NCBI GenBank assembly: GCA_964016885.1
Contig: OZ024750.1
Coordinates: forward strand, 6,448,001-6,512,000
Reading direction: 5' to 3'
Length of the DNA: 64,000 nucleotides
From: Eledone cirrhosa
Lineage: Eukaryota
Below are positions 18,783 to 63,908 of this stretch, in pieces. Positions within the stretch are counted from its first letter, which is position 1. Every line of letters starts with the position of its first letter. The position numbers and the translations under genes were made by a program. Below the pieces are notes generated by a model. It ran no database searches. It had not been told where the DNA came from and saw nothing but the letters and a program-made list of their open reading frames with translations.

Positions 18783-18862
<80 letters not shown>

Positions 18863-18865
<3 letters not shown>

Positions 18866-19094
18866 GTAATAAACAACATAAGAAAATTATTCCATTTACC
18901 AAAGGTTTCACGGAGACAGACGAGCTCGACACAGACGCCTGAAATCGCTCATCAGAATGAAATTTTATTTGATGTGAATGTAAGATATGGATTTAAAAAC
19001 AATTGAAAGCGAGGCTGTTGTTTATTACATAACTAAATAGCTCTGTAGCTTACATAGAGCACTCTCCTTTCCTTTACCTTGCCTACGGAAACAC
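18863..19094. mobile_element. Fold-back hammerhead element family 2, copy 1
   Basis: 16-bp inverted repeat 18863-78/19016-31, ~62-bp tail ending GGAAACAC, (TA)n on both sides; homologous to 59938-60145. Confidence 0.7.
18889..18963 (-). ncRNA. Type I hammerhead ribozyme
   Basis: Minus strand reads ATTTCATT-CTGATGA-GCG..CAGGCG..CGTCTG..CGT-GAAA-CC-TTT-GG-T-A-AATGGAAT: 8-bp stem I, two-part stem II, stem III ACC/GGT, GUA triplet. Confidence 0.8.
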
Positions 19095-19104
19095 AATATA
19101 TATA

Positions 19105-19405
19105 TATAGAGTCGTTAAAACGTCAGATAGAATGCTTTGTAGTAGTCGGTCTGGCTTTCTGCTCTCTGAATTCAAATTCTTTCGAGGTGGATAAAAAAAA
19201 AATAGTACCAGTCTAGTACTGGGGTCGATTCTTTCTCTATAACTCTTTCTCACTTCCTCTCTCTCTCTCATTTCCTATCGTTATCATTCTCTGGAAGAAA
19301 TTTACTGTAGTCAGGCCTGGAAAGGGATGGGCTCTGCCGGGTTTAAAATGCCCAAGAAACGTCGGATGCCAATACGGCACCCCTACAACTACATCAGGAG
19401 TTACA
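19105..19405 (+). mobile_element. SINE A-related subfamily with long 3' extension
   Basis: Degenerate head and central domain, then CATTCTCTGGAAGAAAT..GGGCTCTGCC..CAGGAGTTA. The extension recurs at 26120-26345 (+), 45083-45242 (-), 55300-55500 (-) and 18290-18350 (-). Confidence 0.65.
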
Positions 19406-20652
19406 AGACCATACAATACCATAGATCAATATATAGACATTACTAGAGTTTGAATTCAGTCAGCCCTCACCGAATGATATAAATATGTGCTAATGTTACA
19501 ATGCAATTCTATTATCGGTCAATAAGCAAAATTCTATCTGTGGGGCCCGAATATAATGTGTAGCAGTTGTATTTGGGATCTTCGAAATATCAAAATATAA
19601 TTTCGTTCTGTTGTATATATTAGAAATATTTAAATGTAAACTGAGGTTGAGATGAGGAGTGGAAGAGGTTTTGCTTGTAAACACAATTCTGTAATCAGAG
19701 ATCATCGCAACATAGAAGAGAACAAAATTTGTAGGTTCCATTCCATTTGAAATTTATGGTATCTTTGAATAATTATAATTCCATAATGCTCCAAACAATC
19801 TGAGACTGACACCGATATTTCTTCTTGTACCCAGTAAGAATTTACTCACTGTACTGATTCTGTTAAAACGCATTAATTTATAATTTCAAACTGATACAAT
19901 GTTGCGTGTTTTAACTTCTTGCTGTGATTCATGCAACTTCGCAGACAACTTGTCGCCAAATTAATTTGTAAATATAGTTTGTCTTTCGCTTTTGAAAGCG
20001 GTATGTATAGACATAATTTCTACTAGCTACTTGAGAGTGACTCACGCAAACATCTTCCTGTATCGATGTTATGTGCATGTAGTTTTAATTTGTATCCATT
20101 TCAGATGTAATATGCAAGATACTTAAGAAATAACTAATTTTATATGCGAATGAATATTTGATATGTTTGCAGTTGTACATGAAATATAAAACCCGCGAAA
20201 ACCGGCTTCGTTCGAAAACTTTCGAGGTTTTAATAATTATATTTGTATTACCCAGTTTATTTGGATAAAAACAAAGGTAAAAAAATAAAAGAAACTTTGG
20301 AGAATTAAAGATGGTATGATCTCGGGATAAGAAAAAATGTTAAGAATTTAATAAAACTACGAGATAGGTTTTATAAAAGTACAGAACATTTGCCATCTCG
20401 TTGTCTTATGACAAGGGCTGCGCTATTAGTTTGCAGCGTTTCTCAAGGGTTTCCTTCGTTACAGAAAAGACAAAAAAAAACTGAAATATTTTATTACTAT
20501 TTTCTTAATAGTATTAATGGGTGCCCTTATTGTGGAGTTCAGATATATGAGCAGTGACATGAAATAACCAAGAAAATGTTTTATAAGTGCAGGAAGATGG
20601 GGGACGAGGGTTGATGATTTCAATATCGAATGGAATACAGATATATAATATA

Positions 20653-26670: not shown

Positions 26671-26841
26671 TATGTTCATATATTATTGGAAACTAAACCA
26701 TATTTAATTATCTAGAGAATATGTAATACACGCCCTTTCCCATAATCCCACGAGGAAGGCTTTACTTATTTATATCTAATTACAGGACCAACTGATAGAC
26801 ATAAATTAATAAATATATTATAGCAATTGTCAACGGAATCG

Positions 26842-27845
26842 GGATTGTCTATGGTGTGTTTGATCTGTACTACACAGTAACCACAGAAATATCAGGATTG
26901 CCTATGGTGTGTTTGATCTGTACTACACAGTAACCACAGAAATATCAGGATTGTCTATGGTGTGTTTGATCTGTACTACACAGTAACCACAGAAATATCA
27001 GGATTGTCTATGGTGTGTTTGATCTGTACTACACAGTAACCACAGAAATATCAGGATTGTCTATGGTGTGTTTGATCTGTACTACACAGTAACCACAGAA
27101 ATATCAGGATTGTGTATGGTGTGTTTGATCTGTACTACACAGTAACCACAGAAATATCAGGATTGTCTATGGTGTGTTTGATCTGTACTACACAGTAACC
27201 ACAGAAATATCAGGATTGTCTATGGTGTGTTTGATCTGTACTACACAGTAACCACAGAAATATCAGGATTGTCTATGGTGTGTTTGATCTGTACTACACA
27301 GTAACCACAGAAATATCAGGATTGTCAATGGTGTGTTTGATCTGTACTACACAGTAACCACAGAAATATCAGGATTGTCTATGGTGTGTTTGATCTGTAC
27401 TACACAGTAACCACAGAAATATCAGGATTGCCTATGGTGTGTTTGTTCTGTACTACACAGTAACCACAGAAATATCAGGATTGTCTATGGTGTGTTTGAT
27501 CTGTACTACACAGTAACCACAGAAATATCAGGATTGTCTATGGTGTGTTTGATCTGTACTACACAGTAACCACAGAAATATCAGGATTGTCTATGGTGTG
27601 TTTGATCTGTACTACACAGTAACCACAGAAATATCAGGATTGTCTATGGTGTGTTTGATCTGTACTACACAGTAACCACAGAAATATCAGGATTGTGTAT
27701 GGTGTGTTTGATCTGTACTACACAGTAACCACAGAAATATCAGGATTGTCTATGGTGTGTTTGATCTGTACTACACAGTAACCACAGAAATATCAGGATT
27801 GTCTATGGTGTGTTTGATCTGTACTACACAGTAACCACAGAAATA
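26842..27845. repeat. Minisatellite, 53-bp unit x ~19
   Basis: GGATTGTCTATGGTGTGTTTGATCTGTACTACACAGTAACCACAGAAATATCA, near-identical, no spacers. Confidence 0.97.
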
Positions 27846-32924: not shown

Positions 32925-33400
32925 TTGGCAGTATTGGTAGAGGCTTGGACGCCATTCTTTCCAGCATAGTTTTGTCCCTACATGGTCTGAGTTCAAATCT
33001 CGTCGAGGTTAACTTTACCTTTCATCCTTACGAGGTCGATAAAATAAAATACCAGTAATGCACTGAGGTAATTGCTGGTCTTGTACCAAAAGTAGAAACA
33101 ATTATCATTATGATAAGCGATAAGCGTGGTGGATTGGCAGTATCGGTAGTGTCGGACAACATGCTTTGCGGCATAGTGTTATTGCCCTTTACGTTCTGAG
33201 TTCAAATCCCGCCGAAGTTAACTTTGTCTTTCATCTTTACGGGGTCGATAAAATAATGTACCAGTAATGCACTGGGGTATTTGCTGGCCTTGTGCCAAAA
33301 TTAGAAACATAATTGGTAGAGCAAAGAACACGTTGCCTTACGATATTTACTATTCTTCACTTTCTGACTTTAAATCCCGCTGAGGTCAACTTTGCCTTTC
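32925..33400 (+). mobile_element. SINE family A, three tandem copies; the last runs into a minisatellite
   Basis: 32925-33105, 33126-33313, and 33314-33400 (truncated at TTTGCCTTTC). Confidence 0.85.
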
Positions 33401-34333
33401 TTGTCGACATAATCTCCCGTCATGCTTTTCTTGTCGACATAATCTCCCGTCATGCCTTTCTTGTCGACATAATCTCCCGTCATACCTTTCTTGTCGACAT
33501 AATCTCCCGTCATGCTTTTCTTGTCGACATAATCTCCCGTCATGCTTTTCTTGTCGACATAATCTCCCGTCATACCTTTCTTGTCGACATAATCTCCCGT
33601 CATACCTTTCTTGTCGACATAATCTCCCGTCATGCTTTTCTTGTCGACATAATCTCCCGTCATACCTTTCTTGTCGACATAATCTCCCGTCATGCCTTTC
33701 TTGTCGACATAATCTCCCGTCATACCTTTCTTGTCGACATAATCTCCCGTCATGCCTTTCTTGTCGACATAATCTCCCGTCATACCTTTCTTGTCGACAT
33801 AATCTCCCGTCATACCTTTCTTGTCAACATAATCTCCCGTCATGCCTTTCTTGTCGACATAATCTCCCGTCATACCTTTCTTGTCGATATAATCATCTCC
33901 CGTCATGCCTTTCTTGTCGACATAATCTCCCGTCATGCCTTTCTTGTCGACATAATCTCCCGTCATGCTTTTCTTGTCGACATAATCTCCCGTCATGCCT
34001 TTCTTGTCGACATAATCTCCCGTCATGCCTTTCTTGTCAACATAATCTCCCGTCATGCCTTTCTTGTCGACATAATCTCCCGTCATACCTTTCTTGTCGA
34101 TATAATCATCTCCCGTCATGCCTTTCTTGTCGACATAATCTCCCGTCATGCCTTTCTTGTCGACATAATCTCCCGTCATACCTTTCTTGTCGACATAATC
34201 TCCCGTCATGCCTTTCTTGTCGACATAATCTCCCGTCATGCCTTTCTTGTCGACATAATCTCCCGTCATGCCTTTCTTGTCGACATAATCTCCCGTCATG
34301 CCTTTCTTGTCGACATAATCTCCCGTCATGCCT
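33392..34333. repeat. Minisatellite, 30-bp unit x ~31
   Basis: TGCCTTTCTTGTCGACATAATCTCCCGTCA; two units carry a 3-bp insertion. Confidence 0.97.
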
Positions 34334-39627: not shown

Positions 39628-41027
39628 AATAATATCACCATGAATACATGACACTGTATATAATAATATCACCATGAATACATATGGCACTTTATATAAT
39701 AATATCACCATGAATACATATGGCACTTTATATAATAATTTCACCATGAATACATATGACACTTTATATAATAATATCACCATGAATACATGACACTTTA
39801 TATAATAATATCACCATGAATACATGACACTTTATATAATAATATCACCATGAATACATGACACTGTATATAATAATATCACCATGAATACATGACACTG
39901 TATATAATAATATCACCATGAATACATATGACACTTTATATAATAATATCACCATGAATACATATGACACTTTATATAATAATATCACCATGAATACATA
40001 TGGCACTTTATATAATAATATCACCATGAATACATGACACTGTATATAATAATATCACCATGAATACATATGACACTGTATATAATAATATAACCATGAA
40101 TACATGACACTTTATATAATAATATCACCATGAATACATGACACTGTATATAATAATATCACCATGAATACATGACACTTTATATAATAATATCACCATG
40201 AATACATGACACTGTATATAATAATATCACCATGAATACATGACACTTTATATAATAATATCACCATGAATACATGACACTGTATATAATAATATCACCA
40301 TGAATACATGACACTTTATATAATAATATCACCATGAATACATGACACTTTATATAATAATATCACCATGAATACATGATACTTTATATAATAATATCAC
40401 CATGAATACATGACACTGTATATAATAATATCACCATGAATACATGACACTGTATATAATAATATCACCATGAATACATATGACACTGTATATAATAATA
40501 TCACCATGAATACATGACACTGTATATAATAATATCACCATGAATACATATGACACTTTATATAATAATATCACCATGAATACATGACACTGTATATAAT
40601 AATATCACCATGAATACATGACACTGTATATAATAATAATATCACCATGAATACATATGGCACTTTATATAATAATATCACCATGAATACATATGACACT
40701 TTATATAATAATATCACCATGAATACATGACACTGTATATAATAATATCACCATGAATACATATGGCACTTTATATAATAATATCACCATGAATACATAT
40801 GACACTTTATATAATAATATCACCATGAATACATATGGCACTTTATATAATAATATCACCATGAATACATATGACACTTTATATAATAATATCACCATGA
40901 ATACATGACACTGTATATAATAATATCACCATGAATACATATGGCACTTTATATAATAATATCACCATGAATACATATGACACTTTATATAATAATATCA
41001 CCATGAATACATATGGCACTTTATATA
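39628..41027. repeat. AT-rich minisatellite, 34/36-bp units x ~40
   Basis: TCACCATGAATACA(TA)TG(A/G)CACT(G/T)TATATAATAATA. Confidence 0.97.
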
Positions 41028-41442
41028 ACATATATAAATATATATATAAATACACAAGGCCATACGTCTCTACACAGCTCTGATGTCATGAGTATCGATA
41101 GAAATGAAAAACCATTTAATAATATAGGGACGTATTTCACTGTTCTATGACTTAAGCCGATAAGCAGACGAACAGACAGATCAATATAGAGATAATGATA
41201 TATAAACAACGATTATTGAAGATCAGGAACAATTAATATTTTATTTATATTCAGTGAAAATCCCTATGGAAGTTAATCCTTTCCAGATCAATTAAGATCC
41301 ATTCAGCTCCTGCTTATCTTTGCTTTCCTCTGCAGTTGGCTGAAGAGTGATAAACCCTCTGATGGTTAGAAAGGTAATCCATTATAAGCCATCTGTCTAT
41401 TTTAGAAATCATTAGCATTGTTATTGCACTTTGGCGCGCCTC

Positions 41443-44743: not shown

Positions 44744-45002
44744 GTGAAGGCGCATAGCTTAGTGGTTAGAGCATTGGGCTTGCAATCGAAAGGTTGTGAG
44801 TTCAATTCTCGGACCGGGTGATGTGTTGTTTCCTTGAGCAAGACACTTTATTTTCCGTTGCTCCAAGTTGCTCAGCTGTAGAAGTGAGATGATAGGACTG
44901 GGGTCCCTATCATTAAATCACCCAAGACACCTCCACCAAGATATACCTTGGAGGAGGCCATCTAAACCTGCATAGGTGTGAGCTGTAACAACAACAACAA
45001 CA
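44744..45002 (+). mobile_element. SINE family B
   Basis: Same consensus, (CAA)n tail, TSD ACACTGTT(GT) at 44736/45003. Confidence 0.9.
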
Positions 45003-59850: not shown

Positions 59851-59937
59851 ATATAGAAATGACTTTTACAGGACAAGAACTGTTTCATTCGTATGAAATC
59901 ATCAGGAATGATATATATATATATATATATGTATTAA

Positions 59938-60145
59938 GTGTTTCCGTAGGAAAGGTAAAGGAAAGGAGAGTGCTCTATGTAAGCTACAGAGCTATTTAGT
60001 TATGTAATAAACAACACAAGACAATTATTCCATTTAGCAAAGGTTTCACGAAGGAGCGATTTCAGACGTCTGTGTCGAGCTCGTCTGTCTTCGTGAAACC
60101 TTTGGTAAATGGAATAATTGTCTTATGTTGTTTATTACATAACTA
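59938..60145. mobile_element. Fold-back hammerhead element family 2, copy 2 (CTGAT lost at the inversion)
   Basis: 57-bp arms 59997-60053/60089-60145; same tail and essentially the same two termini as 18863-19094; retains GAGCG..CGT-GAAACCTTTGGTA-AATGGAAT. Confidence 0.7.
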
Positions 60146-62900: not shown

Positions 62901-63654
62901 AGTATAGGAACATCAGACACTAGAGTAATGAGATCTGTTTTTTTTATATCGTCTCATAAATGAAGAAGTTGTCATAATTTCAGTATCGTTTTTAATGAAC
63001 TTAACCATTTACCGAACCTTACGTTTACTTGAACCAAGGGATTAAATCTGTTAAACAGATGAGAGAGAAATAGACTGTGACATTGATAAGTTGCGGCTTT
63101 ACTTCTCATCTCCGGCTCCTAGTAAACGAAGGTGGTATATAGAAAAACATACCCTCTTCGGAGTCATAAATACACCTGCAGTAGAAATTGAACTCAAGAA
63201 CTATGAGTTCACTGAAAAATCTACGTGACTATTTTGTTCCGAAATTCAACTGTTTCTGTGGTGATTATGGCTATTGCTAGTTATGTTGTATCTTCTCTTA
63301 CTGGCACTGATGCTGTTGTTGCTAGTTAGCTTCAGGTCAGCTCCGCTTAAACCAGCTTACGGACAAAAGAATTCTAAACATAACTCTCGTCTATTTTATT
63401 CATACATAGTGTAGGAGCTGTTTCATGGATTCATTGCAAACGGTTGTCAAGGTGAATTAAGTAATAGGGATTTCTGGGATAAACTTTCTATTCCAAACAT
63501 ATTTTTAATGAGAACACGATTTCTCAATTGCTAAAATGATTTCTCAGCCCTCTTTCATTTCTGTGTCGTAGTGGCTTTTATCTCTATTGTTATTGCCCCT
63601 AGATATATCCTGAACATCAAAACTAGACCTTTCTCTCTATTTAAAATCTTAATA

Positions 63655-63908
63655 GTGAAGGCATATGGCTTAGTGGTTAGAGCATTGGACTTGCAATCGA
63701 AAGGTTGTGAGTTCAATTCTAGGACCGGGTGATGTGTTATTTCCTTGAGCAAGACACTTTATTTCACGTTGCTCCAGTTTACTCAGCTGTAGAAATGAAA
63801 TGAAAGGACTGGGGTCCTTATCAATAGAACATCTAAGACACCTCCAACGAGATATACCTTGGAGGAGGCCAGCTAAATATGCATAGGTGTGAGCTATCAC
63901 ACACACAC
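63655..63908 (+). mobile_element. SINE family B
   Basis: Same consensus, (CA)n tail, TSD ATTTAAAATCTTAA 63639-52/63909-22. Confidence 0.9.

Follow-up and report, generated by a model that had tools for sequence, protein, structure and literature searches.

A hammerhead-bearing element end in Eledone cirrhosa: probably a decaying, end-inverted insertion of a Hydra-clade Penelope-like family

Where does the hammerhead motif in a 64,000-nt stretch of the genome of Eledone cirrhosa (below: the window) come from, and does this copy still act as a ribozyme? On the evidence described here the motif is very probably the hammerhead of the 3' end of a Hydra-clade Penelope-like element (PLE), carried by a truncated, end-inverted insertion in (TA)n that is likely decaying neutrally and whose RNA is predicted to misfold.

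The hammerhead motif and the insertion that carries it

The minus strand from 18963 to 18889 reads ATTTCATT - CTGATGA - 39-nt stem II - GAAA - CCTTTGG - TA - AATGGAAT, which is a type I hammerhead, as the initial annotation had proposed, with CUGANGA, GAAA and UH in order, an open stem I and closure of both stem II and stem III (Table 1). All the core letters that had been listed were found (CUGAUGA at 18955-18949, GAAA at 18909-18906 and A as H17 at 18897), as were the 8-bp stem I, in which one pair is U·G, the three pairs of stem III around UUU, and the stem II pairings GCG/CGU and CAGGCG/CGUCUG; the predicted cut at 18897/18896 also agrees with the earlier position. A loose type I descriptor applied to both strands of the 64 kb matched only this site, and Rfam at its gathering thresholds detected no hammerhead in the window. 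The site belongs to a large repeat family and is therefore not a chance occurrence.

Table 1. Features of the hammerhead-bearing insertion, of the second insertion in the window and of a sister-family tandem (positions in the window unless another locus is given)
Feature	Position	Strand	Remarks
Whole insertion, 234 nt, 5'-truncated end of a Hydra-clade Penelope-like element	18863..19096	forward arm -	plus inverted 3' arm
(TA)n target, left	18844..18865	not applicable	after (CA)n run
Rest of pLTR 3' end	18863..18888	-	'short' end (~+34 to +38 past the cut) grades into (TA)n
Stem I 3' strand, AATGGAAT	18889..18896	-	sequence and type I descriptor
GAAA, stem III ACC-UUU-GGU and H17 = A	18897..18909	-	predicted cut 18897/18896
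Extended stem II, 39 nt	18910..18948	-	sequence and family alignment
First half of catalytic core, CUGAUGA	18949..18955	-	C3 = 18955; sequence and type I descriptor
Stem I 5' strand, ATTTCATT	18956..18963	-	sequence and type I descriptor
3' UTR remnant upstream of ribozyme	18964..19018	-	12-nt deletion compared with most copies
Inverted arm	19016..19096	+	element +19 to +38, then ~65-nt tail (19036-19096)
(TA)n target, right	19096..19108	not applicable	
Second family insertion, incomplete hammerhead	59932..60145	+	inverted arm with tail 59932-60053; forward arm G8 to +38, 60054-60145
Sister-family tandem	L136:8354 to L137:2986 (G000:C28, 90.742-90.747 Mb)		inverted unit adjoining

The window copy keeps all core bases and 20 of the 21 family pairs, but two of its ribozyme positions, 18938 (G for A) and 18913 (C for U), deviate from the column majorities. 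The change at 18913, which had been overlooked when the motif was called intact, breaks the fourth pair of stem II (A·C here, A-U in 69 of the 75 aligned pieces). Stem II of this copy is made up of G10.1·U11.1, C-G, G-C and the A·C mismatch, and distally of a 3x3 internal loop, a 6-bp stem with the private G at 18938 and a 13-nt loop. CAGGCG had been taken as a pairing-compatible change relative to CAGACG in a second copy at 60063. It is actually a one-sided change from A-U to G·U that is private to the window copy, and therefore not covariation: the 23-mer with G at 18938 has a single genomic match, that with A has 55. The family letters at the sites of 18938 and 18913 account for 98.8% and 99.7% of depth in the contigs of run X1. 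The three DNA runs compared with the window come from a single sample, perhaps that used for the assembly, and none of their pieces spans the insertion.

In the predicted fold of the window copy the core UGAUGAGC pairs with the 3' strand of stem II and is thereby buried. Adopting the hammerhead fold would cost 6.2 kcal/mol, compared with 1.5-2.1 kcal/mol in typical copies and a median of 4.1, which places the copy 30th among 43 core-intact copies drawn from 55 gap-free ones; adding the native flanks raises the cost to 8.3 kcal/mol, and typical copies too become worse with longer flanks. Stem I had a probability of 0.00-0.04 at 37 C whichever context was used. In typical copies stems I and II form in prediction, the full fold being reached just 1-9% of the time. 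These values come from nearest-neighbour folding, which includes neither Mg2+, tertiary contacts, co-transcriptional order nor protein help. Formation of stem III between two molecules would be possible only around a U-rich gap. The two stem II changes are thus predicted to favour a hairpin in which the CUGAUGA core pairs with the stem II 3' strand, the hammerhead stems are not predicted to be preferred over rival folds, and by these models the window copy is likely inactive. The proposal that it is the best candidate for a still-active ribozyme stands insofar as it is the only complete hammerhead in the window, but neither 'intact' nor 'still active' is supported for this copy, given how usual an intact core is in the family, the lack of the ORF and of the 5' part of the element, and the predicted misfold.

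The insertion contains neither the ORF nor the 5' part of the element, and it matches the pattern of the family, with a forward arm (19018-18863) and an inverted arm with tail (19016-19096); the sequence of the tail is the start of the 5' UTR in ORF-bearing copies. The second copy does contain CAGACG, but it starts inside the core at G8: CGAAG stands before G8 (60054) where CTGAT is expected, and in place of the 5' strand of stem I there is an inverted arm of 61 nt that repeats the copy's 3' end. Without the first five core bases and this strand it is no hammerhead.

Elsewhere in the window, a very high-copy repeat (19100-19424; summed contig depth above 100,000 at 19179-19260) abuts the insertion. 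A tRNA-like Rfam match (44755-44812, plus strand; 29.8 bits, barely over the cut-off) is likely the head of a tRNA-derived SINE; similar text occurs near 63600-63750, and the tRNA-like sequence also flanks several of the genomic loci examined. Homogeneous minisatellites (91-98% matches) lie at 26838-27845, 33393-34333, 39628-41028 and 2289-2708, with units of 53, 30, 34 and 28 nt, respectively. With regard to a host gene, Pfam gave no match for 60 of the 120 stop-free frames of at least 60 aa in the window, a search that short exons would escape.

The driving element and its relatives

A search of the same genome with the window feature yielded 2,938 first-look candidates, 40 of which were scored, and an exact 20-mer from just past the cut site has 834 genomic matches, among which are those in a sister family, with paired insertions counted once for each arm. 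The copies lie in (TA)n, are shortened on the 5' side and frequently form head-to-head pairs. By inspection, both window copies and most of the loci viewed have (TA)n as target.

The link to an ORF could be followed from both sides. In L093 and L132 an ORF is followed by a long, repeat-laden 3' UTR and then by the ribozyme, and in L031, L099, L109/L138, L113 and L132 the pLTR end or tail leads through a 5' UTR to where the ORF begins, so that the tail forms the initial part of this 5' UTR; the AUG lies ~220 nt past the cut site (counted in L031). The ORF contains the motifs MRWK, FSDKT, GLYRDDG, CSCRKAEEC, IVY..YVG without inner CxxC, CSLC and CPH, from which we assigned it by eye to the type with a reverse transcriptase (RT) plus a GIY-YIG-type domain at the C-terminus. 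Pfam found neither domain in 6 + 4 ORF sequences, giving only weak, unrelated matches below the cut-off, and PDB gave no RT or GIY-YIG match for the ORF pieces; the domain calls therefore depend on motifs read by eye. The marks by which the Hydra clade is described (RWK, DKT, a CxCx5C linker, no CCHH, and CxxC and CxH near the C-terminus; PMC8557442) are those of our ORF pieces, which have no CCHH and align by eye with Hydra-1_Obim, and it is on this motif likeness that the placement in the clade rests. Judged by these sequences, the retroelement is a Penelope-like one of the Hydra clade, and the window feature is its 3' end (pLTR). Relatives of the ORF of at least 628 aa number 209, mostly of ~700 aa and unnamed or 'hypothetical'. 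None of the ORF copies found is full-length and uninterrupted; all are broken, the longest open stretch being 358 aa. The element unit measures 4.6-4.9 kb (L132, L136/L137), partly via repeats nested in the 3' UTR, compared with a tendency of Hydra elements to be below 3 kb (PMC8557442).

A sister family, with protein pieces that are 70-90% identical, is present as a head-to-tail tandem with ribozymes 4,632 nt apart (Table 1). Core, stem I and 3' end are the same as in the window's family and the tail is related, whereas stem II is entirely different and stem III is ACCA-C-UGGU. Other hammerhead families in the loci likewise keep the core with other stems, several of them with a long, internally looped stem II. 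Between families, core and pairing are thus kept while the stem sequences differ (by inspection). Within the family, the check for covariation that had been suggested for the motif gave a null result, with none above shuffles (55-145 of 500 shuffles reached the observed value; 57 copies, 54 distinct rows). Support for the putative hammerhead structure comes only from the comparison between families, not from covariation within the family.

Several further elements were met in the loci. The ORF adjoining L024/L032 was considered as the driver of the family but ruled out, since a different hammerhead ~1 kb downstream belongs to that ORF family. A second, very abundant Hydra-like family (L034-L061, e.g. 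L035:3087, plus strand; 68,252 first-look candidates for the endonuclease piece) has a hammerhead ~1 kb past its ORF with the palindromic stem III AUAUAUAU and an internally looped stem II. Three identical type I motifs at a spacing of exactly 310 nt (L109:2676, 2986 and 3296, minus strand; = L138:8322-8942; G000:C4 near 367.375 Mb) have a palindromic stem III (CGCG) and look like a genuine retrozyme array, arranged head to tail, from a different family. Ends of other families that carry hammerheads, often as opposite-strand pairs, are nested in the TA-rich 3' UTR parts of the window's family or adjoin it (L093:2001, L096:5106/5244 and L137:2182/2349), and further unrelated type I motifs occur at L094:3656/4061, L121:2967/3109, L049:3431, L062:1234, L092:461 and L129:868, so that the scanned loci hold at least 6 more hammerhead sequence types.

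Insertion ends, template and selection

The ends of the copies cluster at two places. Among 164 aligned pieces, 63 end at +31 to +43 and 85 at +99 to +108 past the cut, together 148 of the 164, and at the cut site itself none ends and two start. Foreign letters immediately before +1 occur at 14 sites genome-wide, compared with the 834 matches of the 20-mer, and 6 of these 14 prove to be small indels, upstream of which the ribozyme sequence is present. The idea that copies start or end at the cut site was rejected on these counts. Head-to-head pairs combined one short and one tail end in 37 of 45 cases and two short ends in none; the others were 2 two-tail pairs (L160 and L161, apparently a single duplicated locus), 1 ambiguous pair and 5 that continue into the 5' UTR. 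The 45 pairs come from loci chosen by searches in which some queries contained the tail, and a few are duplicates. Tandem and inverted 5'-truncated structures with a tail at one end were seen among the loci of the family and its sister. At one site (G000:C1:20804336-20804448) the post-cut 20-mer recurs every 40 nt, its three occurrences forming a small tandem derived from the 3' end of the pLTR.

A mechanism in line with these ends may be outlined as follows. In source elements the ribozyme would be under selection and would cut head-to-tail transcripts 38 nt before the end of the pLTR and ~220 nt upstream of the start codon. The element protein would nick both strands of a (TA)n target, and reverse transcription would start from two RNA sites, +38 and ~+103, one per strand; both cDNAs would halt early and then be joined head to head. 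The RNA template would be uncut at the ribozyme site or circular, as suggested by genomic ends that lie 38 and ~103 nt past the cut and by inner junctions that are not enriched at the cut, and the data are equal for both forms. In vitro work on the Poseidon element PAc of Anolis (PMC11167929) described nicking of both strands and priming from two RNA sites, insertion that was unaffected by ribozyme mutations, and cleavage that required protein; RNA ends at the cut site were not seen.

A more specific reading is that priming is coupled, with two fixed start sites on an RNA that is uncut or circular, and that the extended, internally looped stem II is a docking module through which cleavage comes to depend on the element's own protein. 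The nearly constant combination of one short end and one end with a 65-nt tail, without footprint of the cut, would in that reading point to coupled priming of the target strands; we regard it as tentative and on the whole unlikely.

We observed no clear sign of selection on individual copies. In 67 copies (8 of 75 were left out because their stem II was divergent or deleted) variants of all kinds were rarer in the core (15/729) than in the flanks (290/3860), but singleton (private) variants did not differ significantly, with 6/729 and 54/3860 (p = 0.28), i.e. rates of 0.008 and 0.014 in a comparison of little test power. In the 28 copies that were found without a ribozyme query the singletons numbered 3/300 and 38/1674 (p = 0.19). 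The core is intact in 51 of the 67 copies and in 16 of these 28. Selection on individual cores, for which a first test had given p ~0.001-0.02, was rejected: the signal was gone once only singletons were counted, the first test having been confounded by shared variants and by the 8 pieces with divergent or deleted stem II. Common variants within the motif (N7, U/C; 10.1, G/A opposite U; one stem I site, G/A opposite U) sit at positions where the fold tolerates them, with the exception of CpG sites in stem II, where they are often pair-breaking. We read the pattern as selection acting in source elements, followed, once a copy has inserted, by decay that is mostly neutral; the singleton test being weak, it is also compatible with weak selection on individual copies.

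Alternative origins, relation to known elements and significance

The preserved core and pairs of the window copy might mean that it travels as a passenger which, on transcription of the minus strand, still slowly cleaves intronic or read-through RNA of the host, and its three stem III pairs are indeed more than most animal Penelope hammerheads have (PMC4209133), while a protein-assisted Penelope hammerhead is on record (PMC11167929). Such cutting is nevertheless improbable in view of the predicted misfold, with its paired core and a stem I that hardly forms, and of the weak cleavage of animal Penelope hammerheads in vitro, mainly as dimers (PMC4209133, PMC6765202), for which the window offers no second complete motif. 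Maintenance by selection as a domesticated regulatory ribozyme of the host is hardly credible, the least probable of the explanations considered: the core is intact and divergence from the column majorities is 5.1% compared with a family median of 6.3%, but 21 of the 67 copies are less diverged, most copies have an intact core anyway, and the changes of the window copy weaken stem II.

Most of the sampled copies are short and without ORF, as would be expected of a non-LTR retrozyme or satellite, that is, a short tandem hammerhead repeat spreading via a small circular RNA, and derivation of retrozymes from Penelope pLTRs has been reported (bioRxiv 10.64898/2026.07.22.740005). The copies are however head-to-head with ragged inner ends instead of fixed-length head-to-tail units, no tandem array covers the ribozyme among the 150 of 176 window repeats listed, which include this region, and longer copies continue into the ORF, a linkage by which the retrozyme explanation is largely refuted; we consider it very improbable. 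With animal non-LTR retrozymes the family shares the type I hammerhead and short, ORF-less copies; it differs in its own ORF, and no short head-to-tail arrays of its unit were seen. A truncated end of a Hydra-clade element is thus the reading that we retain.

Hydra-clade hammerheads have been published, one of them from octopus (PMC8557442), and the nearest listed element, Hydra-1_Obim of Octopus bimaculoides, has the same single ORF with RT and C-terminal GIY-YIG-type domain. The clade and the family share RWK, DKT, CxCx5C, CxxC and CxH, the (TA)n target, a hammerhead of type I close to the 3' end, 5'-truncated arms in inverted orientation and a tail at one end, and File S2 of PMC8557442 also contains motifs with U11.1 and G10.1 and with a UUU loop III (Penelope-13_HM, -17_HM; Penelope-2_HM, -5_HM). 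In contrast, Hydra-1_Obim has another ribozyme sequence and a protein that is unlike at many positions (by eye), and compared with the clade as described the unit is longer (~4.6-4.9 kb vs <3 kb), as are the tail (~65 vs 30-40 nt) and stem II (39 nt with an internal loop vs short hairpins in nearly all listed Hydra motifs). The PLE hammerheads of PMC4209133 are likewise of type I, in the pLTR, with a long helix II and a short helix III, and occur mostly as solitary truncated copies with some opposite-strand pairs 100-700 bp apart; the family differs from that description in that it lacks a bulged base between A9 and 10.1 and has G·U or A-U in place of G10.1-C11.1, an 8-bp stem I and a non-palindromic UUU loop III (the ACCA-C-UGGU of the sister family is nearly palindromic). 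As in PAc (PMC11167929), the tail equals the sequence that separates two 3' ends and, read from pLTR to ORF, follows downstream of the ribozyme, the target is AT-rich and the cut site leaves no footprint. The PAc ribozyme, however, overlaps the ORF start and its tail lies within the ORF, whereas in the family both lie in the 5' UTR, ~220 and ~120 nt before the AUG, respectively, and the PAc start sites showed no strand bias in vitro, whereas the two ends of a family insertion almost always differ. The ribozyme of the window's family is absent from the motifs of File S2, and the open literature on cephalopod and Penelope hammerheads (Repbase and Dfam being outside this scope) yielded no account of it.

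We thus describe a new family of a known kind, within which the window copy is a poor choice for an activity test. The single locus carries little weight, as one decaying end among many hundreds that belong to a known retroelement class; the find, of modest value, is the family rather than this copy. For the question of what the hammerhead does in Penelope-like elements, this genome offers several families with the same core, swapped stems and countable insertion ends. The end counts, with one tail end per insertion and none at the cut, agree with the unprocessed-RNA template described in vitro (PMC11167929), and they contribute something unseen in that work on PAc, namely that an insertion's two ends are coupled.
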